This document shows, piece after piece, positions 10,624 through 55,447 of a stretch of 64,000 nt of DNA; position 1 is the stretch's first letter, and each line of letters starts with the position of its first letter. The DNA comes from an uncultured Alphaproteobacteria bacterium (GTDB taxonomy: Bacteria; Pseudomonadota; Alphaproteobacteria; RF32; CAG-239). The position numbers were made by a program, and so were the translations under genes. Where the stretch lies: NCBI GenBank assembly GCA_910584385.1, contig CAJUAK010000005.1:58870-122869 (forward strand), written 5' to 3'. The notes under the pieces were generated by a model. The model was given only the letters and a program-made list of their open reading frames with translations, searched no databases and was not told the DNA's origin.

Positions 10624-12039
10624 ATGAAGTTTAAGAGAAATAAGTTCACACCTGCTTCAAAATCCAAGAAAAGATCAAAGAAAAAAAATAAATATGTTTT
10701 AGGCCTCGGTCCTAAGATGGTTAATTCTATCAAGATTGCCCTTGATGAGAATGACAAAATCCATATCCGGAAAATTGCCGAGGGGCTGTCTGAATATGAC
10801 CTTGCCAAATTGCTTGAGGTTTTGGACAGCGGGCGGCGCCGCAAGCTGGTTGAAATCTTGGGCGAACATATCAATCCGGAGGTCTTTCCCGAATTAAATG
10901 AGGTTGTTCAGGAACAAATCATCGATTCAATGGATGATGCGCAGATTGCGCATATTGCCAATGAGCTGAATTCTGATGAAGTTGTTGAAATTCTGGAACA
11001 TATGGACAGCGTGGAGCAAGAGAACATCCTGAACCAGCTGTCTCCGGATTTGAAATATAAGGTATCATCTTCGCTGTCTTACCCCGAAGATTCCGCCGGG
11101 CGTATTATGTCCCGCGACTTTGTGAGCATGCCCGACTGGTGGAGCGTGAAAGAGGCCAAGGAATATCTCTTAAAAGAAAAAGAACTGCCGGATGATTTTT
11201 ATAATATCTTTTTGACAGATGAAAAATTTCATCCTTCCGGGGAAATCGCCCTGGATAAGCTGCTGCGTGCAAAACCCGGGCAGAAATTATGCGAAATTAT
11301 GGATTGCGAGGTTGTTCCTGTTGATGTTTATACGGACCAGGAAGAGGTTGCGCATATGTTTCGCGAATACGGCTGGCGTTCCGCGATGGTTGTCGATGCC
11401 AACAGCCGCCTTATCGGCGTGATTACGATTGACGACGTGGTTGAAGTTATCCATGAAGAGGCCGGCGAGGATATTATGTTGCTTTCCGGTGCCGAAGAAG
11501 GCGATGTTTATAAATCGGTGTTTGCTATTTTTAAATCGCGCGCGGTTTGGCTGGTTACCAATTTGTTTGCAACATTATTGGCGACGTCTGTGGTAGACGG
11601 CTTTCAGGAAATTATTGCCCAGCTTTCGGTTTTGGCTGTTTTGATGCCGATTGTGGCGTCTATGGGCGGCACAACGGGAAACCAGACACTGGCGGTTGTT
11701 GTCAGGGCTTTGGCGACGAAGGAACTAACCTCCCGCAACACGCTTGGCATGATTGGCAAGGAATTTTTGGTCGGCTTGTGCAACGGGCTTTTATTTGCCG
11801 CGCTTATCGGGGTTATTGTTTATTTTTGGTTTCCGCAGCAGATGATGATGAGCGTCATTATCGCGGTTGCCATGCTCTGTACGCTGACTATCGCAAGCCT
11901 TGCCGGAATCTTAATTCCCCTGACCTTGACGAAGTTTAAGGTTGACCCTGCGATTTCTTCCGGCGTTTTCCTTATTGCAATTACCGATTCCGGGGGCTTT
12001 TTCATCTTTTTGGGATTGGCGAGCCTTTTATTGATTTGA
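10624..12039 (+). CDS. mgtE: magnesium transporter MgtE
   Basis: MgtE N-domain, CBS pair region, then C-terminal TM domain (GNQTLAVVVRAL...). Start at ATG 10624 after AGGAGGG. The track ORF start 10567 lies inside the tRNA. Confidence 0.9.
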   Translation: MKFKRNKFTPASKSKKRSKKKNKYVLGLGPKMVNSIKIALDENDKIHIRKIAEGLSEYDLAKLLEVLDSGRRRKLVEILGEHINPEVFPELNEVVQEQIIDSMDDAQIAHIANELNSDEVVEILEHMDSVEQENILNQLSPDLKYKVSSSLSYPEDSAGRIMSRDFVSMPDWWSVKEAKEYLLKEKELPDDFYNIFLTDEKFHPSGEIALDKLLRAKPGQKLCEIMDCEVVPVDVYTDQEEVAHMFREYGWRSAMVVDANSRLIGVITIDDVVEVIHEEAGEDIMLLSGAEEGDVYKSVFAIFKSRAVWLVTNLFATLLATSVVDGFQEIIAQLSVLAVLMPIVASMGGTTGNQTLAVVVRALATKELTSRNTLGMIGKEFLVGLCNGLLFAALIGVIVYFWFPQQMMMSVIIAVAMLCTLTIASLAGILIPLTLTKFKVDPAISSGVFLIAITDSGGFFIFLGLASLLLI

Positions 12040-33381: not shown

Positions 33382-34056
33382 TCAGATAACGATATAATCA
33401 ATAAAAATTCCCGGAATGGTTATCGTGTTGGGATTAAGGCTGTCTTCTAAAAATTCTTCAGCCTCTACGATAACCGTTTTTGCGGCGGTTGCCATAACCG
33501 TGTTAAAATTGCGGGTGGAACCTTCCAGATATACATTGCCAAACTTGTCAACTTTTGTGCCGTAAATAATTGCAAAATCCGCAGTAAGCGGTTTTTCCAG
33601 CAAATAGTCTTTTCCGTCTATGCTGATTATTTGTTTGTCTTTCGCAACAACAGTCCCTATGCCGGTTGGGGTAAGAATGCCGCCCAGGCCGGCGCCGCCA
33701 GCGCGAATCCTCTCCACCAGTGTCCCCATGGGGACGAGTTCGACTTCCAGTTCGCCGTCATGCAGTTGTTTCCCGGTTTCAGGGTTTGTTCCGATATGGG
33801 TAACAATCGCTTTTCTAATTTGTTTGTTGCTGATTAATTTTCCTCGGTCGTGCTCCGGATAAGATGTGTCATTGGCGATTAGCGTTAATCCGCCGGTTTT
33901 ATATTCGGTAAGCGCATCAATTGTTTTTACGGGGCTTCCGCATTTAAGAAACCCGCCAATCATTATGGAGGAGCCGCTTTTAACTAATTTAGCCGCCTCT
34001 GTAGCTGTAATCTTTTTTTTCAAGTTTGACCCTTCTTTTACTGATTTGGCGGGCAT
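33382..34056 (-). CDS. 3-oxoacid / acetate CoA-transferase subunit A
   Basis: AKLVKSGSSIMIGGF...NVYLEG... Start trimmed to ATG 34056 (MPAKSV). The longer track ORF is an artefactual extension that runs antisense through tRNA-Val. Confidence 0.85.
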   Translation of the reverse strand: MPAKSVKEGSNLKKKITATEAAKLVKSGSSIMIGGFLKCGSPVKTIDALTEYKTGGLTLIANDTSYPEHDRGKLISNKQIRKAIVTHIGTNPETGKQLHDGELEVELVPMGTLVERIRAGGAGLGGILTPTGIGTVVAKDKQIISIDGKDYLLEKPLTADFAIIYGTKVDKFGNVYLEGSTRNFNTVMATAAKTVIVEAEEFLEDSLNPNTITIPGIFIDYIVI

Positions 34057-34216
34057 TATAACAAAAAAATATGAAAAGTACAATATTAATAATAGCCCCG
34101 GACAAACGCTCTTCAGTTTATTGATATTAAATGATTTTCTAAAAAAAATGATTTTTATGGAATTTTTTGCTTGATTATTTATTTTTGTGAGTGTATAAAC
34201 TCTCTTGTTAAACGGA

Positions 34217-34293
34217 TGGGAGTTTAGCTCAGCTGGAAGAGCATCTCGTTTACACCGAGAGGGTCGGGAGTTCGAACCTCTCAACTCCCACCA
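34217..34293 (+). tRNA. tRNA-Val (anticodon UAC)
   Basis: GGGAGTT...AACTCCC-A-CCA. Anticodon stem tctcg/cgaga with loop ttTACac. T-loop TTCGAAC. Confidence 0.85.
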
Positions 34294-34295
34294 AT

Positions 34296-34366
34296 CAAAG
34301 CCTCCTTCGGGAGGCTTTTTTTTGTGTATAGATACCCCCCGGCTAGGCCGGGGGGTATCTTTTTTT
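34296..34366 (+). terminator. two tandem rho-independent terminators
   Basis: aaagcctcc-ttcg-ggaggcttt followed by T8, then gataccccccggc-tag-gccggggggtatc (13 bp GC stem) followed by T7. Confidence 0.7.
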
Positions 34367-34487
34367 AAATAAAAACGGTTTGTGAAAATCACCGGGGAGT
34401 TATGTAGATTTAAAATTTCCTTAACCTTCTATAAAGCAAAGGCGGATATTATTTCTATAATAGAAAATTGTTATTTATGGAGAAGGC

Positions 34488-35690
34488 ATGCAAAAGATAG
34501 AGGAAGTTTTAAGCCATTACGGCGTGTCGGGGAAGGTCGTTGCAATTCATGAAGGCCCTTTGGTCAAGCAAATTGAATTTTTACCGGACCCCGGAACAAA
34601 AATGAAAAATATTACATCATCTCTTGATGATATTGCCCGGGAACTTGCTGCGCCGTCTTTGCGTTTGGAGGCGATTGAAGAAAACGGTACCATCGGTTTC
34701 GAATTGCCTGCCGAAACAATGAAAAGCGTAGATTTTCTTTCTTTGCTGCCATCTTCGGAATTTCTGGCGGCGAAAGGGGCACTGCCAATTATTTTGGGTG
34801 TGGATATTAGCGGGCGCCCTGTTATTGCCGATTTGGCAAAAATGCCGCACCTTTTGGTGGCCGGGACAACCGGTTCGGGAAAATCCGTCGGGCTTAACAG
34901 TTTTATCCTTTCTTTAATTGCAAAAAAGCAGCCAGAAGACTTGAAGTTTGTGTTAATCGACCCGAAAAGGATAGAATTTGGCATTTATAATAATCAAAAA
35001 TATCTTTTAACGCCGGTTGTTACTGAAATGGGCGAAGCTTCTGCGGCTTTGTCATTATTGGCGGAAGAAATGGAACGCCGCTACGCTTTATTTGAAGAAA
35101 ACCTGGTTAAAAATATTGGCGAATATAACGAATCTGCGGGGCATCTTCCTTATATCGTTTGCGTAATTGATGAGTTTGCCGATTTGATGTCTTATGATAA
35201 GAAAACATCCGCCATTGTCCAAAGGCTGGCGCAAAAAGCCAGGGCTGCGGGAATTCATCTCATTTTAGCGACCCAACGTCCCTCGGTTGATGTAGTAACC
35301 GGCGTTATAAAAGCTAATTTTCCGACCCGCTTGTCCTATAAAGTGGCAAGTGCTGCAGATTCCCGTACGATTTTGGATGCTGCCGGCGCGGAAAAGCTTA
35401 TCGGGCGCGGTGATGCCTTATATTTGGCCGCTGATGGAAATTTGCAGAGAATACACGGCGCATATGTCGACAATGCCGGAATTGATAAGATCTTGGCTCC
35501 TTATCGGGCAGAAATCAAACCATTGAAGCTCAAAATGGAAAGTAAACCTGCCAATCAGAAAAGTGAAAAAAGCTTTTTTAGAAAAATGTGGGATTTTTGG
35601 AGTTCCCTACGCCAAAGAGACCGGAAAATGATTATAAACGGCATAATGTTTTTGGCAGGCTTTGTCAGCGGTAAAAAGAAAAGGAGATAG
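34488..35690 (+). CDS. FtsK/SpoIIIE-family ATPase, motor (alpha+beta) domains only; no N-terminal TM segment and no gamma domain
   Basis: Collinear with the FtsK C-terminal motor: VIADLAKMPHLLVAGTTGSGKSVGLNSFILSLI, VLIDPKRIEF, VIDEFADLM, ILATQRPSVDVVTGVIKANFPTRLSYKVAS. The C-terminal 55 aa are not a winged-helix gamma domain and end in a hydrophobic stretch. Confidence 0.75.
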   Translation: MQKIEEVLSHYGVSGKVVAIHEGPLVKQIEFLPDPGTKMKNITSSLDDIARELAAPSLRLEAIEENGTIGFELPAETMKSVDFLSLLPSSEFLAAKGALPIILGVDISGRPVIADLAKMPHLLVAGTTGSGKSVGLNSFILSLIAKKQPEDLKFVLIDPKRIEFGIYNNQKYLLTPVVTEMGEASAALSLLAEEMERRYALFEENLVKNIGEYNESAGHLPYIVCVIDEFADLMSYDKKTSAIVQRLAQKARAAGIHLILATQRPSVDVVTGVIKANFPTRLSYKVASAADSRTILDAAGAEKLIGRGDALYLAADGNLQRIHGAYVDNAGIDKILAPYRAEIKPLKLKMESKPANQKSEKSFFRKMWDFWSSLRQRDRKMIINGIMFLAGFVSGKKKRR

Positions 35691-35692
35691 AA

Positions 35693-35986
35693 ATGCATTT
35701 AATCATATTAGGGCTTTTGCTTTATGTCATATTTGCGGAATGGCGGAACATGAAACAAGCCGCCGCTTTGAAAGATTTGGAAAAGAAGCTTGAAAAATAT
35801 AAAAAAGATAAAACATTATGGTACTCGGGCGTTTTGCCTGCGGCTGACAAAATGTGCCTGTTTGAAGAAGCCAAAGGCGGCTATGCCTTGTCCTCTTTGG
35901 ATGATAAGCGCTGGCTTAAAAACGGAGAAGCCGATTTTTTGAAAATCAGCCGTTGGATTTATATTGACGACTTGAAAAATTTATAA
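35693..35986 (+). CDS. small membrane-anchored hypothetical protein
   Basis: N-terminal TM helix LIILGLLLYVIFAEW. 3-nt gap after the FtsK-like gene. Confidence 0.45.
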   Translation: MHLIILGLLLYVIFAEWRNMKQAAALKDLEKKLEKYKKDKTLWYSGVLPAADKMCLFEEAKGGYALSSLDDKRWLKNGEADFLKISRWIYIDDLKNL

Positions 35987-36038
35987 GCTTGCAAAAATAT
36001 TTTTAAAGGGATATCTTTTGGAGAAAGGAGAATATAAA

Positions 36039-36296
36039 ATGGAAAATAAAGTTGCGGTTTTGGCGATTATTGTTGAAGACATGAATTCTGTTGAAGAATT
36101 AAATGCCGTTTTGCATGATTATTCTTCTTATATTATCGGCCGGATGGGAATTCCATACAGATGCAGGGGAATTAACGTGATCAGCGTGGCTTTTGATGCG
36201 CCGCACGATATTATCAGCGCTGTGGCCGGAAAAATCGGAAGGCTTAAGGGCGTCTGCGCAAAAACGGCTTATGCCGGCATGCCGGAAGCCGAATAG
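36039..36296 (+). CDS. TM1266-like putative iron-only hydrogenase system regulator (ACT/NikR-C-like small protein)
   Basis: VAVLAIIVEDMNSVEELNAVLHDYSSYIIGRMGIPYR...GKIGRLKGVCAK matches the TM1266 family pattern. ATG 36039 after AAGGAG. Confidence 0.6.
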   Translation: MENKVAVLAIIVEDMNSVEELNAVLHDYSSYIIGRMGIPYRCRGINVISVAFDAPHDIISAVAGKIGRLKGVCAKTAYAGMPEAE

Positions 36297-36350
36297 TATT
36301 TGTTAACTGACGGGGAAGTTTATTCTGACCCATAAGAGAAAGGTGTGGAG

Positions 36351-37769
36351 ATGTATGATCCGAAATCTTCCAAAGCGGAAGAATTTATTTGCCATGAAGA
36401 AATTTTGGCCTCTATGGAATATGCCGAAAAAAACAAAAATAATTTACAGCTTATTGATGAAATTTTAGAAAAAGCACGTTTGCGCAAAGGGCTTTCCCAT
36501 CGGGAAGCGGCTGTTTTGCTTGATTGTAACATACCTGAAAAAAATGCTGAAATTTATGCTTTGGCAGAACAGATAAAAAAAGACTTTTACGGCAACAGAA
36601 TTGTCCTTTTTGCGCCGCTTTACCTTTCAAACTACTGCGTTAATGGCTGTGTTTATTGCCCATATCATGCTAAAAACAAGCATATTCCCCGCAAGAAAAT
36701 GACGCAGGAAGAAATCAGGAAAGAAGTTATCGCCCTCCAGGATATGGGACATAAGAGACTGGCTTTGGAAGCCGGGGAAGATCCGGTTAATAACCCGATT
36801 GAATATATATTGGAATCCATCAAAACCATTTACGGAATTAAGCATAAAAACGGCGCCATCCGCCGCGTAAATGTTAATATTGCAGCAACGACGGTCGAAA
36901 ATTATCGCAAATTGCATGAAGCAGGTATCGGAACCTATATTCTTTTTCAGGAAACATATAATAAAGAATCTTATGAAAAACTTCACCCAACCGGGCCAAA
37001 GCATAATTATACCTGGCATACGGAAGCTATGGACCGGGCGATGGCCGGCGGCATTGACGATGTGGGCTTGGGCGTTTTGTTTGGCCTGGAATCATACCGT
37101 TACGAGTTTTCAGGAATTTTGATGCATGCCGAACATCTTGAAGCAGCCTTCGGCGTTGGCCCGCATACGATTTCAGTGCCGAGAATCCGCCGGGCGGATG
37201 ACATTGATCCTGATGCGTTTGATAATGGCATTGACGATGATACTTTTGCAAAGATTGTTGCCTGTATCCGTATTGCGGTTCCTTATACCGGAATGATTGT
37301 TTCCACAAGAGAAAGCCAAAAGACAAGGGAGCGGGTTTTGCATTTGGGAATATCCCAAATCAGCGGCGGTTCAAAAACAAGCGTCGGCGGTTATAGCGAA
37401 CCAGAACCGGAAGATGAGAGCTCTGCCCAGTTTGACATCAGCGATAAACGTACATTGGACGAGGTTATTAAATGGCTGATGGAGATGGGATATATCCCGA
37501 GTTTCTGTACGGCTTGTTACAGGGAAGGGCGCACAGGCGACAGATTTATGGAATTATGCAAAAGCAAACAGATTCAAAACTGCTGCCATCCCAATGCTTT
37601 GATGACACTGAAAGAATATCTGGTTGATTATGCCAGCCCTGAAACCAGAGCAATCGGCGAAAAACTTATTCAGTCGGAACTTGGCAGCATTCCCAAGGAG
37701 AAAGTTAAAGAAGTCGTTATTGACCGCCTGGGCAAGATTGAGGATGGCAAACGGGATTTCTATTTTTAG
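36351..37769 (+). CDS. hydG: radical SAM tyrosine lyase, [FeFe]-hydrogenase maturase HydG-like
   Basis: N-terminal radical SAM motif CVNGCVYCPY (ThiH/HydG-like context LFAPLYLSNYC). C-terminal auxiliary-cluster motif CTAC-X22-C (CX2CX22C) diagnostic of HydG. About 472 aa. Confidence 0.7.
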   Translation: MYDPKSSKAEEFICHEEILASMEYAEKNKNNLQLIDEILEKARLRKGLSHREAAVLLDCNIPEKNAEIYALAEQIKKDFYGNRIVLFAPLYLSNYCVNGCVYCPYHAKNKHIPRKKMTQEEIRKEVIALQDMGHKRLALEAGEDPVNNPIEYILESIKTIYGIKHKNGAIRRVNVNIAATTVENYRKLHEAGIGTYILFQETYNKESYEKLHPTGPKHNYTWHTEAMDRAMAGGIDDVGLGVLFGLESYRYEFSGILMHAEHLEAAFGVGPHTISVPRIRRADDIDPDAFDNGIDDDTFAKIVACIRIAVPYTGMIVSTRESQKTRERVLHLGISQISGGSKTSVGGYSEPEPEDESSAQFDISDKRTLDEVIKWLMEMGYIPSFCTACYREGRTGDRFMELCKSKQIQNCCHPNALMTLKEYLVDYASPETRAIGEKLIQSELGSIPKEKVKEVVIDRLGKIEDGKRDFYF

Positions 37770-44971: not shown

Positions 44972-45207
44972 TGATAAATAATAATGATGTTTCCCAACAA
45001 GTTGAAAATGCTTATTTTATAATGCTTTCTCTTTGTCGTGAACTGTATCTGTGCGTTGGCCGTAATCCTGAAAAATCTGAGGAATATTTGGCAAAAACGG
45101 CTGCACTGAAAAAAGATATGCGCTATTTGGATAAGCCGCAGCTTATCGCAAAAGCACAACAGGTTTACGCACCACAGTTGAAAAAATTGTTAGGAAAAAA
45201 AATATGA
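44968..45207 (+). CDS. small helical protein, candidate epsilon/PezA-type antitoxin
   Basis: 79 aa. ATGA overlaps both the upstream stop and the downstream zeta-like start. Confidence 0.45.
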   Translation: MMINNNDVSQQVENAYFIMLSLCRELYLCVGRNPEKSEEYLAKTAALKKDMRYLDKPQLIAKAQQVYAPQLKKLLGKKI

Positions 45208-46106
45208 CTGATTTAAAACGTTTTGAATTAGATGAAGCACAACATCAGAAATGGTTTGAAGATGTTATTCTTCCTCAATTTGCAGAAGGGAAAGAAACTG
45301 CAAAAGTTCCAACTTTTGTTTTACTTACAGGACAGCCTGGCGCTGGAAAAACTTATTCTTCCTTCAGATATGCGCAAAGTATGGAAAGTGAGCCCATCCG
45401 TTTTGGCGCTGATGATTTAAGGCTGCTTTTGCCTTATGCAATGGATGCTATGAGAGAGGATGAGCAGAATTACCCATTTTTAACTAAAAAAGATGCCGGA
45501 TTGGCAAGGGAAAAGCTTGTTGATTATGCACTTGCTCATAAAAAGAATATTTTGGTGGAAAGCATCCTTGCTAATCCTGAAGATTGGAAAATGGGAACAT
45601 TGTTAAAAGCTAAAAAAGCAGGCTACAAGGTTGAATGCGCCGTTTTAGGCGTCCATAGGCATTTAAGCGAAGTCTCTATATTTTCCAGATATGAAGAACA
45701 AAAAGCAATTACAGGCTATGGGTTCGCCCCTACTTTGGATGTTCATGACAAAGCTTATACGCTTCTGCCGGATATAACGGGAAAAATGTTGCAAAACGGC
45801 ATTGCTGATGCTCTAAGCATTTATAACAGAGAATTTAAATGCTTTTATGACAGCAGAGTCGAAAAAGGGCAATCTCCCCAATTGGAAGTGATGAAAGCTA
45901 TTGGACGGTCAAGAAACAGCTCTCTTAATTATGATGAAATGTGCAATGTGGCAGTAAAATGGGATATGGTGCTTGAAAGTATGGCAAAACGTGGCGCAAG
46001 CAGAGATGAAATAGAAAAAGTCCAAATGTTAAAGGCGAATTTTAAGAAAGATACGGCTATTTGTTTTACTCCGGCTTATCGTTATAATTTTAAAGGAAAA
46101 GAGTAG
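45204..46106 (+). CDS. zeta-toxin family P-loop kinase
   Basis: Walker A LTGQPGAGKTY followed by FGADDLR (cf. zeta DGDxFR), ILVESIL, KKAGYKVECAVLGV and SRYEEQ, collinear with PezT/zeta. 300 aa. Confidence 0.6.
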   Translation: MTDLKRFELDEAQHQKWFEDVILPQFAEGKETAKVPTFVLLTGQPGAGKTYSSFRYAQSMESEPIRFGADDLRLLLPYAMDAMREDEQNYPFLTKKDAGLAREKLVDYALAHKKNILVESILANPEDWKMGTLLKAKKAGYKVECAVLGVHRHLSEVSIFSRYEEQKAITGYGFAPTLDVHDKAYTLLPDITGKMLQNGIADALSIYNREFKCFYDSRVEKGQSPQLEVMKAIGRSRNSSLNYDEMCNVAVKWDMVLESMAKRGASRDEIEKVQMLKANFKKDTAICFTPAYRYNFKGKE

Positions 46107-48818: not shown

Positions 48819-49108
48819 ATGGGCTCTCAGAACGCGCTCAGTGTTGTTTGCCATATAAATTCAGGCTGAGCGCTTTCTAAATGGCCGAAATCAGCTTATT
48901 AATTTTATTCGTTTTGCGAATATTATCTATAATATATATTATGCGACAAAAGTATATTATCACACAGGGCACTTCTTCTCTATGCTATTCAAGGGCTAAT
49001 GCGCTGTCCGCCTTTGTTTTCTTCTTAAAATCATGGTGCGCTTATAATTTTACGCCATTATAAAATATGACTTGCGACAGGATTGAATTTAATCTGTCAA
49101 TTTTGTTT

Positions 49109-52144: not shown

Positions 52145-53190
52145 TATGCGTTCTTTCTACTGTCAAAAGCGTCGCGCACGCCTTCTCCGATAAAAATTAA
52201 TAAGGAAAGCAGGCTGGAAAGCACAATAAATATTGTTATTCCAATCCATGGCGCTTGCAAATTATCCTTGCCCTGCCGGACTAAATCTCCAAGCGACGGA
52301 TAATCATGCGGCAGTCCTAAGCCCAAAAAATCTAACGCGGTCAATGCAACAATCGCCTCTGAAAGGATAAAAGGGAGAAAGCTCAGCGCTGCGGTAACGG
52401 CATTGGGGAGAATATGCTTATATATAATTCTGAAATCGCTTACGCCAAGGGCTTTGGCGGCCATGACAAATTCAAAATTGCGTGTTCTCAAAAATTCTGC
52501 GCGAACCACGCCGGTCAGGTTCATCCATGAGAAAAAAAGCAGGATTATAAGCAGGCTCCAAAATCCGGGAACAAATATGCTGGCAACAATAATTAAGATA
52601 AACAGCTGCGGCAAAGATTCCCAAATTTCCATAAAACGCTGAAAGAAAATATCTATTTTTCCGCCGAAATAGCCCTGCACTGCCCCAGCGAAAATACCAA
52701 TAACCGAAGAGAAAAATGTAAGCGTAAAAGCAAAAAATATTGATAGGCGCAGGCCGTATAAAATCCGGGCAAGGATATCCCTTCCCTCATCATCCGTCCC
52801 AAGCCAGTGTTTTGCATCAGGTGCCGCCGGGGCCGGTTCTTCAAGCTCGTAATCTACCGTATTAAAGGAAAAAGGGATAAGCGGCATAACCATCCAGCCG
52901 TTTTCATTTATATTTTGTTGCAAAAAGGCATCTTTATAATCGGCGGCGGTTGGAAAATCCCCTCCGAAATCCTTATCCGTATAGGTTTGAAAAAGCGGAT
53001 AATAAAAGCTTCCCTTATATCTGACCAGCAACGGCTTATCATTTGCCAGAAATTCGGCCAAAAGCGTTAAAAGAAAAACAATTAAAAAAATAATCAAAGA
53101 ATAAGCCGCGCGCTTATTCTGCCAAAAGGCAAACAAGCGCCTTTGGTTAAGAGGAGACAGCCGCTTAAACACCTTATTGAGGCATTTCAT
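52144..53190 (-). CDS. yejE: ABC transporter permease, YejE-like (OppC family)
   Basis: N-terminus LSPLNQRRLFAFWQNKRAAYSLIIFLIVFLLTLLAEFLANDKPLLVRYKGSFYYP is near-collinear with E. coli YejE. Confidence 0.85.
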   Translation of the reverse strand: MKCLNKVFKRLSPLNQRRLFAFWQNKRAAYSLIIFLIVFLLTLLAEFLANDKPLLVRYKGSFYYPLFQTYTDKDFGGDFPTAADYKDAFLQQNINENGWMVMPLIPFSFNTVDYELEEPAPAAPDAKHWLGTDDEGRDILARILYGLRLSIFFAFTLTFFSSVIGIFAGAVQGYFGGKIDIFFQRFMEIWESLPQLFILIIVASIFVPGFWSLLIILLFFSWMNLTGVVRAEFLRTRNFEFVMAAKALGVSDFRIIYKHILPNAVTAALSFLPFILSEAIVALTALDFLGLGLPHDYPSLGDLVRQGKDNLQAPWIGITIFIVLSSLLSLLIFIGEGVRDAFDSRKNA

Positions 53191-55447
53191 CTGGTTTCAC
53201 CTCAATCGGGGTTGGAGAAGCTATTGTTATTTCCTGCGGCGTTTCAATGACTTCTGTTTCGGGCTCGGCCTCCTCTTCTGCGCTGACAGGCACAGGCTTG
53301 ATTTCCTTTACTTCTTCAGTCGGGCTGGCTGTTATTTCCTCTATTTTATTGCCCTCTATTACTTTTACGGAAACTTCAGGTTCAATTTCTTCTGCTTCTT
53401 CCGTGTTAACGGCTTCAGAAAAGGCTTTTATTTCTTTTTCCATATCTTTCTGCCCTTCTTCCGTTAAGGTTGGTTTTCCATTGAAGAAATTATCAATAGT
53501 TTCTTTCTTAATTTTTTCAAAGCTGTTTTGTTGAAGCTCTTTTAATTTTATATCTGATGCCGGATTTTTTTGAACCCATTCTTCATACCATTTTTGAAAA
53601 GGTGCCACAGATAAAGCCAGATTTTCTTTTTTTATCGTTTCCGCTTTAATTTGGCTCAATAACTGCCCTTTGGCCAAATCGTGCAGATTAAGCTCTTTTA
53701 GTTCGGCACATTGCGGGGCTTTGAACAGATATTCTTTTATTATATTTGAAGCCAGGCAAAGCTTGTCATTGATTTCGCTTTCTTTTTTGAACGGATCGCG
53801 AATTGCTAAAAGCGCCTGGTTGTTGTTTTTAAAGTTTTCAATAAAATCATCATCGTTTCTTATGCCCAGCCTGTTGTTTCGGCTATTTAAACTCTGCAAA
53901 ACAATAACGCTTTTATCCAAAATTCCTTCTTGTTGCAGCTTTTGCAAAAACTCTTGCAATTTTCCATACAGGCAGCTGACCTGCTGGTTGTATGCCTTCA
54001 CCAAGTGGTTCATATCCTGCTGTTTCACCCAATCCTGGTCTTGCTGGTATACCCACTCTCTGGCGGGTTTGACGTGGCAGAATTCATCATAAATATATGC
54101 GTTAGAAGGCATATCCACAAAAGCAAAAAAGGCGTGGCTGCTTTTGTCTTTTTCAATATCTTCGGCGATAATATCCAGTGTTTTTAAGGAATTGACCACA
54201 TAAAAGTTATTTGTTGAATACCCGAGAAGCGGCGTTTCTTTTACTTTAACAAAAGGCTTTAACCCTTCGTAAACAAACCCTAAATTAGTAAACAGCCCGC
54301 TGCTTTCCAGCCATTCTGCCACTAAAAATTCCGTTTTTGCAAATGGCGAAAGATTTAAAGCATCCAGATTAATCGGCAAATTTTGTTTTTTTACGCATTT
54401 GTTTATGCTGTCCAACTGGTTCGAGCATAGTTCCAAACCTCTGGACTGATAAACGCTTATATTATATTTCGCCTTTTTGAAACTGTTAAATAACTGATTG
54501 TTTTTTAGGTATAAATATTGGTTTGATAGATCATCAAAATTCCAGAGGCTGTTTAATGAAACCAAATTGAGCAGATTATTTCCAATATCTTCGGGCAATG
54601 TTCCGGGATTTAACGTTTGAACAATATTTAAAAACGGGTTTTCTTCACGCACATAAGCATTCGGATATAACACAAACCTGTTCAGGCTGTAAAATCCTAA
54701 CTGGTTCTTATGGCTCTGCTCTATTTGCGCCAAGGTTTCGCCCGTTAAAAATTTATTATTAGCCCATGCATCGGATTGGTTTAAGGTTCCTAATTCAGGC
54801 AAGCCGATGTAAATGAAATATTTTGCGTTGCTGTTGGCAATGGCTTGCGGCTTTGTCTGATGGGTAACCCGGAAGTCTTTTCCATTTTTTTGAGCCGAAA
54901 AATAAGTGTCTGTTCCCACGCCAATGCCTATCAACAGCAAAATTCCCGTAAAATAAGCCTGCGTGGCGCGCGATGAAAAGCTCAACAGGCCGAATAAAAC
55001 AATGGCAAGGGCACCAATAACAATATAATGCGAGCCATGCATAAACAAATTTCCGGTATCTGCGCCAAAATAATTGCTTATCAGCCCATAAAGCATTGCA
55101 TCTTTATTAAACAAGGCAAATTGATTTAAAAATGCCAAAGCAATGCATGAAAACAACAGCGTTACGATTAAATTCTGCAAAGAATATGAAAATGAGAACA
55201 GAAAAATTATGGATACAGAAAAGATGGAAATGCCTGCCAAGACATATAAGAATTCCGGAGAAATCTGGTGATTTTCCTGAAAAATGCCATAGCTTCCCGC
55301 ATTTGCAAATAAAATGAAGTCTATTGACAGCAGGGAAATGATTATCAAGCTTTTGCATACTAAATTAAACAGAAATCCGCTCCATGGGCGGGGTGCGGAT
55401 TTTTTCTTGCTCTTTCCGCGTTTTTCACTCAGATATATATCCTGCAT
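53174..55447 (-). CDS. large polytopic membrane protein of unknown function with C-terminal Pro/Glu-rich low-complexity tail
   Basis: 757 aa. About 5 N-terminal TM helices, an approximately 450-aa extracytoplasmic domain with no motif I recognise, and a tail EEAEEIEPEVS...PTPIEVKPDEMPQ. 17-nt overlap with yejE. Confidence 0.6.
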   Translation of the reverse strand: MQDIYLSEKRGKSKKKSAPRPWSGFLFNLVCKSLIIISLLSIDFILFANAGSYGIFQENHQISPEFLYVLAGISIFSVSIIFLFSFSYSLQNLIVTLLFSCIALAFLNQFALFNKDAMLYGLISNYFGADTGNLFMHGSHYIVIGALAIVLFGLLSFSSRATQAYFTGILLLIGIGVGTDTYFSAQKNGKDFRVTHQTKPQAIANSNAKYFIYIGLPELGTLNQSDAWANNKFLTGETLAQIEQSHKNQLGFYSLNRFVLYPNAYVREENPFLNIVQTLNPGTLPEDIGNNLLNLVSLNSLWNFDDLSNQYLYLKNNQLFNSFKKAKYNISVYQSRGLELCSNQLDSINKCVKKQNLPINLDALNLSPFAKTEFLVAEWLESSGLFTNLGFVYEGLKPFVKVKETPLLGYSTNNFYVVNSLKTLDIIAEDIEKDKSSHAFFAFVDMPSNAYIYDEFCHVKPAREWVYQQDQDWVKQQDMNHLVKAYNQQVSCLYGKLQEFLQKLQQEGILDKSVIVLQSLNSRNNRLGIRNDDDFIENFKNNNQALLAIRDPFKKESEINDKLCLASNIIKEYLFKAPQCAELKELNLHDLAKGQLLSQIKAETIKKENLALSVAPFQKWYEEWVQKNPASDIKLKELQQNSFEKIKKETIDNFFNGKPTLTEEGQKDMEKEIKAFSEAVNTEEAEEIEPEVSVKVIEGNKIEEITASPTEEVKEIKPVPVSAEEEAEPETEVIETPQEITIASPTPIEVKPDEMPQ

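Follow-up and report, generated by a model that had tools for sequence, protein, structure and literature searches.

In textbook accounts FtsK ties cell division to chromosome segregation and to dimer resolution, and both E. coli and Caulobacter require its N-terminal domain in order to divide. To our knowledge, its three-part design, in which an anchor to membrane and divisome is combined with a motor and with a gamma domain which reads sequence and activates XerD, is treated as near-universal in bacteria, and nearly all Proteobacteria retain a canonical FtsK. SftA, from the Firmicutes, is about 950 aa long. In B. subtilis this FtsK-like translocase has no membrane domain, is recruited to the septum and works beside the membrane-bound SpoIIIE; it keeps its gamma domain and its septal recruitment occurs through the FtsZ ring (PMC5357621). 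SpoIIIE which has been engineered to lack gamma still translocates, and point mutations partly compensate for the loss (PMC4744071). We found no description in the literature of an FtsK from Alphaproteobacteria which lacks both the gamma domain and transmembrane segments.

In the window, by which we mean the whole stretch of 64,000 nucleotides which was analysed, positions 34488–35690 hold an intact gene retaining the alpha-core and the complete beta motor of FtsK, with all of the nucleotide-binding motifs. The first-pass annotation had reported a motor-only FtsK here, following a tRNA-Val gene and a double terminator, and we found all of these where it had placed them. The best explanation as a whole, to which we give a probability of roughly 0.55, is that this is a conserved motor-only FtsK serving as a second, SftA-like accessory translocase beside a canonical FtsK which carries gamma. 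The gene and its parts are as follows:

34479–34486, forward strand: Shine-Dalgarno-like GGAGAAGG, read from the sequence, just 5' of the short ftsK ATG
34488–35690, forward strand: short FtsK-family translocase gene, 400 aa, with alpha-core, beta RecA motor, linker and conserved C-terminal tail, without 4TM and without gamma
34488–34712, forward strand: FtsK alpha-domain core, residues 1–75 (PF17854), without the first ~26 Pfam model positions
34752–35507, forward strand: beta RecA-like ATPase domain, residues ~89–340 (PF01580), aligning to P. aeruginosa FtsK 2IUU until residue 340
34863–34886, forward strand: Walker A GTTGSGKS, G126–S133, with G126 and T128–S133 invariant in 38/38 aligned members
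35166–35177, forward strand: Walker B IDEF, with D228 and E229 invariant
35508–35558, forward strand: variable charged linker, residues 341–357, sitting where canonical FtsK has its beta-gamma linker
35559–35687, forward strand: conserved C-terminal tail, residues 358–400, with an amphipathic F/W helix, a basic turn, a hydrophobic helix and a KKKRR end

The gene begins with an ATG which has GGAG 5 nt upstream. An N-terminal extension is impossible because the frame is closed by a TAG 9 codons before this ATG, and no ATG, GTG or TTG stands between them. Using Pfam, residues 2–74 matched positions 27–100 of the 101 in FtsK_alpha (PF17854; 58 bits, cut-off 22.9) and residues 89–267 matched FtsK_SpoIIIE (PF01580; 188.5 bits, cut-off 24). 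Both motor domains are thus collinear with FtsK as originally proposed, but the first ~26 positions of the alpha model are missing; the start of this model was likewise unmatched in the relatives P0125 and P0131. The protein also contains the motif FPTRLSYKVAS. That it would have no membrane domain, linker or gamma was confirmed: the 400-aa protein had no Pfam match to FtsK_4TM (PF13491), which the canonical controls P0136 and P0137 do match, and none to FtsK_gamma (PF09397), and no sufficiently hydrophobic residue window was found in it outside the tail. No gamma- or 4TM-like coding sequence was present in any frame of the window, and four gamma-domain tblastn queries gave nothing credible.

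The motor resembles canonical FtsK (E. coli and P. aeruginosa; 2IUS, 2IUU and 6T8B) in its collinear alpha-core and beta domains, at ~45–50% identity, in its Walker A and B and ATQRPSVDV motifs and in its fold. By phmmer it matched the P. aeruginosa and E. coli FtsK motors at E = 8e−93, and its score against the canonical FtsK equivalog (NF007615 / PRK10263 equivalog) was 322 bits, which is below the cut-off of 1566. The AlphaFold2 model (mean pLDDT 76.6) matched 2IUS and 6T8B in Foldseek with TM 0.70–0.76 and E = 5e−37 (TM 0.75 for 6T8B), superposing on solved FtsK motors across ~360 of ~395 ordered residues. The short form is presumably a hexameric pump of double-stranded DNA, as canonical FtsK is. 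It differs from the canonical protein in lacking the 4TM domain, the long linker, the first ~26 alpha positions and a ~25-residue beta insertion (chain 312–340 of 2IUU), and in having no gamma, and hence no KOPS reading or XerD activation, with a new C-terminal tail. The linker before this tail is gappy and non-conserved in the family alignment, with pLDDT <50 at residues 350–360.

The tail occupies the position of gamma, on a flexible linker. It had been described as an unrelated segment of ~55 aa with a hydrophobic stretch, which agrees with our results: the last ~55 residues of the protein matched nothing, and the hydrophobic helix, followed by a K/R-rich end, spans 13–15 residues here and 13–17 across the family. 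Two tail helices were predicted in the AlphaFold2 model, at residues 363–373 and 376–393. Within the amphipathic helix W371 (W-x-S/T-L) is invariant in 38 aligned members, the pattern W-x-[S/T]-L was found in 116 of 120 members, and the last 8 residues have a median net charge of +4 (120 members). A hydrophobic window of 15 residues with a Kyte-Doolittle score ≥ 1.6 was found in 83/120 members, while a 19-residue window at the same score was found in 9/120. From these sequence features we infer that the tail is a membrane-binding module. Membrane binding is plausible rather than firm because the hydrophobic helix falls short of the length of a usual transmembrane span and has basic residues flanking it at both ends; protein or DNA could be the ligand of the tail instead. 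A classic single-span tail anchor was considered and rejected for most members, given the stretch of 13–15 residues with basic flanks. Such an anchor may exist in the sister family of short forms, P0131/P0272 (381 aa), whose end segment is of transmembrane grade (19-residue Kyte-Doolittle score 2.36).

The short form is not limited to this genome. We found at least 120 protein clusters (the 120 are the best-matching clusters and so a lower bound) from uncultured Alphaproteobacteria MAGs, with 58–100% identity, lengths of 395–436 aa and the same two Pfam domains; gamma was absent in all of these 120 best relatives. An alignment of 38 members showed a common start and ~100 invariant columns, including Walker A, Walker B, ATQRPSVDVVTG and the W371 of the tail. 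K132, D228 and E229 are invariant across the family, and T127 of Walker A is invariant in a 35-sequence alignment but is replaced by A in L007 and L009, which are the most divergent pair of members. Assemblies and contigs with the short form include GCA_948783065.1 (the species of the window), GCA_965646365.1, the MAGs CAZZNV01, CAMOYJ01, CAYPIZ01 and CACXFX01, and JGI contig Ga0466714_074198 (829 kb). This is therefore a conserved family of uncultured, mostly gut or rumen Alphaproteobacteria, and the possibility raised in the first-pass annotation that orthologous genomes have the same short form, with the same architecture, has been borne out. Its proteins are currently annotated as “DNA translocase FtsK” or “hypothetical protein”, and they lack a curated family model of their own.

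Judged by sequence comparison, the family descends from bona fide FtsK. Among 1.84 billion cluster representatives, all top matches which were not short forms were proteins of 600–1200 aa with 47–53% identity, and every one of these whose domains were checked was a canonical FtsK. A search of genome contigs with the 400-aa protein gave 7 loci, 4 of them short forms and the other 3 unrelated canonical FtsKs, and a metagenome search with the family alignment returned, among the matches listed (the best 600), only unrelated canonical FtsKs at 41–51% identity. The nearest canonical representative, P0137, is gammaproteobacterial-like (Microbulbifer, Oleispira). In a neighbour-joining tree of 158 motor domains the short forms made up one clade, and this tree did not show an alphaproteobacterial origin for them. 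The apparent sisters of the clade in the tree were the tandem-motor or fused proteins P0122, P0129 and P0124, which we regard as long-branch or gene-fusion artefacts and not as true sisters.

As a sequence-blind, membrane-peripheral double-stranded DNA translocase of the FtsK family, the protein would be functionally closest to SftA of B. subtilis, which is likewise an FtsK-family motor without an integral membrane domain and offers the best functional parallel. This parallel does not extend beyond function, because SftA keeps gamma; it also has an N-terminal region of its own, both of these being absent from the short FtsK, in which the putative targeting element is C-terminal. Gamma-less SpoIIIE is similarly a motor without a sequence-reading domain, but it is a laboratory construct which keeps its N-terminal membrane domain, whereas the short FtsK is natural and conserved and has lost its N-terminus as well.

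We propose that the 400-aa protein would form a hexameric ring which, like FtsK, pumps double-stranded DNA with ATP. Because gamma is absent this pump would be sequence-blind, neither reading KOPS-type polarity signals nor activating XerD. The C-terminal (beta) face would carry six projecting tails which, through the aromatic amphipathic helix, the short hydrophobic helix and the poly-basic end, could tether the ring to the inner membrane on its cytoplasmic side or to a divisome partner. The tethered ring may then clear chromosomal DNA out of the closing septum, with a canonical, gamma-bearing FtsK encoded elsewhere working alongside it.

The distribution of KOPS bears on this proposed canonical FtsK. 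The window probably spans the replication terminus, and within it GGGNAGGG (KOPS) was found in 9 copies pointing toward the GC-skew switch and 0 in the opposite sense, an enrichment of 2–3.5-fold over the expected 2.6–4.2 copies (Markov orders 0–5, P = 0.0015–0.03). In the same species, two further copies in this sense occur shortly beyond the window. However, it should be noted that this signal is a modest one: polarity of ≥ 8:0 is reached in the window by 150 other gapped octamers, owing to the co-orientation of genes with replication, and GGGNAGGG was overall unenriched in the loci of other species. As it is both polar and enriched, GGGNAGGG hints that a gamma-domain reader is encoded elsewhere in the genome. 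Using tblastn with four queries, no second ftsK, 4TM or gamma coding sequence was found in ~300 kb of lineage DNA, partly redundant, which covers a small part of the genomes. The only dif-like site at the probable terminus has a poor XerD arm (7/11).

We also examined the surroundings of the gene, which include the following:

34218–34293, forward strand: tRNA-Val, anticodon TAC (ARAGORN), a neighbour only, with no functional link to the ftsK-like gene
34297–34323, forward strand: first intrinsic terminator, with a 9-bp stem, a GNRA-like loop and a T run, ending the tRNA transcript
34330–34367, forward strand: second intrinsic terminator, with a 14-bp stem containing 10 G-C pairs, then a T7 run
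35693–35986, forward strand: 97-aa ORF with an N-terminal hydrophobic helix, 3 nt after the ftsK stop

As hairpins with T runs, the two terminators were located at 34297–34318 and 34330–34360. The 82-nt stretch which holds them folds at −44.9 kcal/mol (z = −7.65), which was equalled by 0/200 shuffles, and a consensus scan found no sigma-70 promoter between the terminators and the ftsK ATG. Across 11 loci of the lineage the gene has differing housekeeping neighbours, e.g. the Mla operon, argS, DUF308 and, at a distance of 6–10 kb, mraZ/ftsI, showing that the short ftsK is an ordinary chromosomal gene whose neighbours vary by species.

Its position ~200 nt downstream of a tRNA gene and its apparently truncated domain set had suggested a remnant of an element integrated at the tRNA-Val 3' end, or a decayed or frameshifted ftsK pseudogene. 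We consider either to be scarcely credible. Decay is contradicted by the recurrence of the same intact short ORF across 120 or more clusters, in which the catalytic residues are invariant and the start and tail are conserved, and by the fact that none of the window's reading frames contains gamma- or 4TM-like coding sequence. Regarding an integrated element, the three marks of a tRNA-integrated island were all absent: no integrase lies within 10 kb, searches with 21- and 32-nt queries for the tRNA 3' end (≤ 3 mismatches) returned self-matches only in 64 kb, in agreement with what had been seen by eye, and the GC content of 0.39–0.46 is the same as in the rest of the window. No att-like repeat was found in the 11 lineage loci, tRNA-Val was beside the gene in 0/6 related loci scanned for tRNAs, and downstream lie a permease gene and genes for hydrogenase maturation (HydG, 941 bits, together with a TM1266-like regulator). 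Very unlikely, too, is an ATPase from a mobile or defence module, be it one for conjugative coupling (TraB/TcpA type), for type VII-like secretion or for anti-phage defence of the SspH or mad8 kind. All of these proteins share the FtsK/SpoIIIE P-loop fold with the short form, and in favour of such an origin there are matches to the PADLOC profiles SspH (191 bits) and mad8 (127 bits), both weak to moderate, to TcpA (E = 5e−24 by sequence, TM ~0.52 by structure) and to the PHROG “FtsK/SpoIIIE-like” profile (317 bits). FtsK proper far outscores the alternatives in both sequence and structure, with NCBIfam giving FtsK 322 bits, EssC 114 and TraB 57. The type VII ATPase profiles (EssC/EccC) were below threshold at 114 bits (cut-off 778) and 111 bits (cut-off 509), as were the conjugative profiles TraB (57 against 800) and TraD (38 against 366); these groups have a TM of about 0.5 and 18–26% identity, and EssC/EccC carries two or three ATPase domains in tandem where the short FtsK has one. 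The SspH profiles are 1561–1766 positions long and their match is confined to the FtsK-like end. No relaxase, T4SS, WXG100/Esx, Ssp/Dnd or integrase gene was found beside the short ftsK in any of the 11 loci, nor were other defence genes near it; PADLOC matched none of the five other window proteins scanned and PHROG none of three small neighbouring ORFs. The suggestion of a stand-alone translocase consequently stands in its general sense but not in a conjugative or type VII setting.

It is possible, though we hold it only tentatively, that the short protein is the only FtsK of its lineage, in which an ancestral ftsK would have lost its N-terminal membrane domain and gamma and regained a membrane tether through the new C-terminal tail. 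It would then serve division and segregation, and possibly dimer resolution at a divergent dif, without an N-terminal divisome domain, KOPS reading or activation of XerD by gamma. Consistent with this, every related genome sampled has the short form with the same architecture, a tail at the exact position of gamma would restore the tether lost with the N-terminus, and no canonical FtsK is especially close to the family, with identity of 51–53% at best and the nearest one, P0137, being gammaproteobacterial-like. The poor XerD arm of the lone dif-like site would fit a non-canonical relationship between Xer and FtsK, and point mutations can rescue gamma-less SpoIIIE for some functions (PMC4744071). 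Polar and enriched GGGNAGGG around the terminus, however, suggests a gamma reader, and the branch leading to the family is long relative to canonical FtsKs, which is common among paralogues. The general retention of canonical FtsK among Proteobacteria, as far as we know it, also argues against a sole short form.

In either case, a whole lineage of gut Alphaproteobacteria conserves an FtsK which has been reduced to its motor and a new 40-residue tail. If the protein is an extra translocase, as we favour, it would provide a Gram-negative counterpart to the division of labour between SftA and SpoIIIE, and a compact natural model of a gamma-less pump tethered at its C-terminus. If it is instead the only FtsK, divisome anchoring and polarity reading would be dispensable or replaceable in a Gram-negative bacterium, and the protein would be a natural “minimal FtsK”, i.e. 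an alpha-beta motor which is blind to sequence and whose C-terminal face is tied to the membrane.

The 97-aa ORF had been put forward as a small transmembrane protein accompanying the motor. Its position 3 nt after ftsK and its N-terminal hydrophobic helix were as described, but a role as a partner did not hold up. Its AAGGAG Shine-Dalgarno falls within the final codons of ftsK and it would be translationally coupled here, yet it is an orphan restricted to the lineage. Only three clusters were found in 5.8 billion proteins and a 54% homologue is located away from any ftsK, and so the ORF is a species-local neighbour and not a partner. An FtsB/FtsL-like divisome partner was also considered and rejected, as Pfam gave only a sub-threshold LapA_dom match and the ORF is not conserved with the short ftsK. 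The tRNA-Val, the terminators and the 97-aa ORF would all appear to be local accidents of gene order in this species. We also observed rnf, apbE and dsbD genes beyond one end of the window.

The first-pass annotation had described a tRNA-Val, a double terminator, a motor-only ftsK gene and a small ORF starting 3 nt further on, and all of these were found in place:

34218-34293, + strand, tRNA-Val(TAC), found by ARAGORN
34297-34318 and 34330-34360, stems of two hairpin-plus-T-run terminators 3' of the tRNA-Val
34488-35690, + strand, short ftsK ORF of 400 aa, ATG preceded by GGAG
35693-35986, + strand, 97-aa ORF, start 3 nt past the short ftsK stop
Further downstream: TM1266-like hydrogenase regulator, HydG (941 bits), small lipoprotein-like ORF, DUF2934, amino-acid permease, U32 peptidase

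The 82 nt terminator region had a folding energy of -44.9 kcal/mol (z = -7.65 vs shuffles). A longer N-terminus for short FtsK is impossible, because an in-frame TAG lies nine codons 5' of the ATG with no ATG, GTG or TTG in between. A mechanical ORF listing also produced a 336-aa ORF (33382-34392, - strand) running antisense over the tRNA-Val and both terminators; this was rejected as an artefact, since the CoA-transferase gene is called as a product of ~213 aa in other assemblies (locus L004, 8895-9536).

Short FtsK matched the Pfam families FtsK_alpha (residues 2-74, profile positions 27-100 of 101) and FtsK_SpoIIIE (residues 89-267), with no match to FtsK_4TM or FtsK_gamma. It is collinear with the crystallised FtsK motors of P. 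aeruginosa and E. coli (E about 1e-92), but lacks a beta-domain insertion of ~25 residues and is wholly divergent past residue ~340. Among 5.8 billion protein clusters, the best 120 matches were all 395-436 aa long and 58-100% identical, with the same two Pfam domains. The few named matches and four genome loci came from MAGs of uncultured gut or rumen Alphaproteobacteria, labelled "Alphaproteobacteria bacterium", "uncultured Azospirillaceae", "uncultured Acetobacter sp." and RUG11221, a naming pattern which we take to reflect the GTDB order RF32. Aligned members shared a common start and about 100 invariant columns, including Walker A (G-T-T-G-S-G-K-S), Walker B (D228-E229) and A-T-Q-R-P-S-V-D-V-V-T-G. 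An AlphaFold2 model made from 35 members (mean pLDDT 76.6) superposed on two solved FtsK motors, 6T8B (DNA-bound) and 2IUS, with TM of 0.70-0.76 over ~360 of ~395 ordered residues. This conservation, the invariant motifs and the superposition mean that purifying selection acts on a motor that is essentially complete. The earlier suggestion of a decayed ftsK was therefore refuted: the best 120 relatives are intact and of the same short architecture, with invariant ATPase motifs and a common start.

The motor is followed by a variable, charged linker of low pLDDT (residues ~341-357) and then by a related tail in every short-form member. The position of the tail is exactly that of the gamma attachment in canonical FtsK. 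First comes an aromatic amphipathic helix with an invariant tryptophan (F-F-R-K-M-W-D-F-W371-S-S-L in the window protein), and the motif W-x-[S/T]-L was found in 116 of the best 120 members. After this helix come a basic turn (R-Q-R-D-R-K), a hydrophobic helix of 13-17 residues and a K/R-rich end, the last eight residues having a median net charge of +4; the model predicts two helices, at 363-373 and 376-393. A classic membrane span was ruled out for most members, as a Kyte-Doolittle (KD) value of 1.6 over 19 residues was reached in just 9 of the 120 and both flanks of the hydrophobic helix are basic. By analogy, the tail seems closer to the interfacial or monotopic modules through which proteins such as MinD and FtsA bind membranes. 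A distant short family (P0131/P0272, 381 aa, 53% identical) has a TM-grade C-terminal segment (19-residue KD 2.36), which supports membrane association as a theme common to short forms. At locus L002, a 220-aa protein encoded 3' of short ftsK (11272-11934) has a start (...KALWNFWTSPTGAFILA...) resembling the FtsK tail motif K-M-W-D-F-W-S-S-L with its ensuing hydrophobic helix, and itself ends in a hydrophobic helix and KRRKKR; from the sequences, this likeness may reflect a common membrane-targeting motif or mere coincidence.

Short FtsK is an intact and conserved motor of the FtsK type, which lacks the 4TM and gamma domains and carries a conserved tail. Among 1.84 billion representatives at 50% identity, its family was a handful (P0125, P0127 and P0131), and all other top matches were 600-1200 aa long and 47-53% identical. 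Both long matches checked (P0136 and P0137) had the canonical 4TM, alpha, beta and gamma domains. Neighbour joining placed the short forms in one clade on a long branch, and no canonical FtsK was a credible close sister to them; their nearest canonical representative was gammaproteobacterial-like. The short family clearly derives from FtsK proper, either as an orthologue which has lost domains or as an old paralogue. The top-scoring representatives also include proteins of 866-1227 aa that carry a tandem pair of FtsK motor domains (P0121-P0124, P0126 and P0129), one of them fused to DJ-1/PfpI and some without the 4TM domain; these may be real proteins or fusions arising from assembly or gene calling.

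We compared 11 short-ftsK loci: the window (also present as L004 and L005), L001, L002, L006, L007, L008, L009, L097, L098, L099 and L100. Immediate neighbours varied from locus to locus and included DUF308 with MIP, unknown proteins, a lipoprotein, argS, the Mla operon, CNNM and DsbA. The mraZ end of the division and cell-wall cluster (mraZ, rsmH, small ORF, ftsI) lay 6-10 kb from short ftsK in two species (L098 1-371, L100 650-4201), a weak and possibly ancestral linkage to division genes.

The position after tRNA-Val had raised the possibility of an integrated-element remnant, a reading which did not survive. No integrase, relaxase, secretion or defence gene adjoined short ftsK in the 11 loci, GC content around it was unremarkable, and no tRNA-Val adjoined it in six related loci scanned for tRNAs. 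The tRNA-Val 3' end (21 and 32 nt, up to 3 mismatches) occurred only once in the window, and repeat finding downstream gave only chance-level matches. A conjugation or type VII setting found no support, with NCBIfam scores of 322 bits for FtsK against 114 for EssC, 111 for EccC and 57 for TraB. PADLOC matches to SspH and mad8, and those to PHROG, covered the shared ATPase module only, and the neighbouring small ORFs had no match in either. Taken together, mobile-element, defence and pseudogene readings are very improbable. We consider short FtsK a functional, conserved, chromosomal FtsK-derived translocase of new architecture (probability about 0.9), and so a new architectural variant within a very well known family; an NCBIfam search gave no curated model covering the short form, and we found no description of this architecture in the literature.

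KOPS is the motif read by the gamma domain of proteobacterial FtsK. Cumulative GC skew peaked near 49 kb and gene orientation switched from + to - in the gap 48819-49108, a probable replication terminus which contains the window's best dif-like site:

48922-48949, - strand, dif-like 28-mer, TTGTCGCATAA-TATATA-TTATAGATAAT
13060, 18949, 28631, 31819, 37522, 41033 and 47793, + strand, GGGNAGGG
52779 and 62869, - strand, GGGNAGGG

The dif-like site matched E. coli dif at 19/28 positions, with a poor XerD arm (7/11). All 9 copies of GGGNAGGG, the E. coli KOPS, were on the leading strand and pointed toward the skew switch, with 0 in the opposite sense, against 2.6-4.2 expected under Markov orders 0-5 (P = 0.0015-0.03); 150 other gapped octamers were likewise at least 8:0 polar, because genes are co-oriented with replication. 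L093, from the same species, added two same-sense copies just outside the window. Loci of other species had scattered copies only, yet those of any one locus always faced the same way, with 4 on one strand in 13 kb of L007 (0.19 expected).

Skew, dif-like site and KOPS polarity lean weakly, as sequence patterns, towards a second, gamma-bearing FtsK in these genomes. That short FtsK is instead the sole, minimal FtsK of the lineage seems less likely to us. No 4TM or gamma sequence of either FtsK domain occurred in ~300 kb of partly redundant lineage DNA, a small part of these genomes. We slightly favour an accessory, SftA-like translocase. SftA of B. subtilis, an FtsK-like translocase which has no membrane domain, is recruited to the septum and works beside membrane-bound SpoIIIE (PMC5357621). 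It is the closest functional analogue, neither protein having a membrane domain, although SftA keeps gamma and short FtsK does not. Gamma-less SpoIIIE still pumps DNA, with partial adaptation through point mutations (PMC4744071). Short FtsK would act as a hexameric, ATP-driven and sequence-blind dsDNA pump, whose six C-terminal tails may hold the ring at the inner membrane face or on a divisome protein, and could help in clearing DNA from the division site.

The 97-aa ORF was rejected as a partner of short FtsK, as it is not kept with the gene in other species (absent within 6-10 kb of short ftsK in every other species examined) and has a homologue away from ftsK. It formed three clusters in all among 5.8 billion proteins (100, 66 and 54% identity), and the 54% homologue was flanked by an NlpE-like gene and unknown genes, with U32 and SIR2 close by and no ftsK near. 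Its only Pfam signal was a sub-threshold LapA_dom match to its hydrophobic N-terminus. Its AAGGAG is located within the final short ftsK codons. The ORF is probably a genuine small gene, whose co-translation with ftsK is confined to this species.

A zeta toxin family gene (45204-46106, + strand, 106 bits) with a 78-aa ORF directly ahead is probably an epsilon/zeta-type toxin-antitoxin pair; at L097, the locus of a 72%-identical relative, a 95-aa ORF and a zeta toxin lie directly 3' of short ftsK. A 757-aa ORF (53174-55447, - strand) adjoins an oligopeptide-type ABC transporter; it had no Pfam match at E <= 1e-5, and gene calls in other assemblies of the species include it. Directly 3' of the 97-aa ORF, 36018-37769 encodes the TM1266-like regulator of an [FeFe]-hydrogenase system and the radical-SAM maturase HydG, and an Rnf complex is found at 60-63.6 kb, which together suggests an anaerobic, hydrogen-producing life for this alphaproteobacterium.
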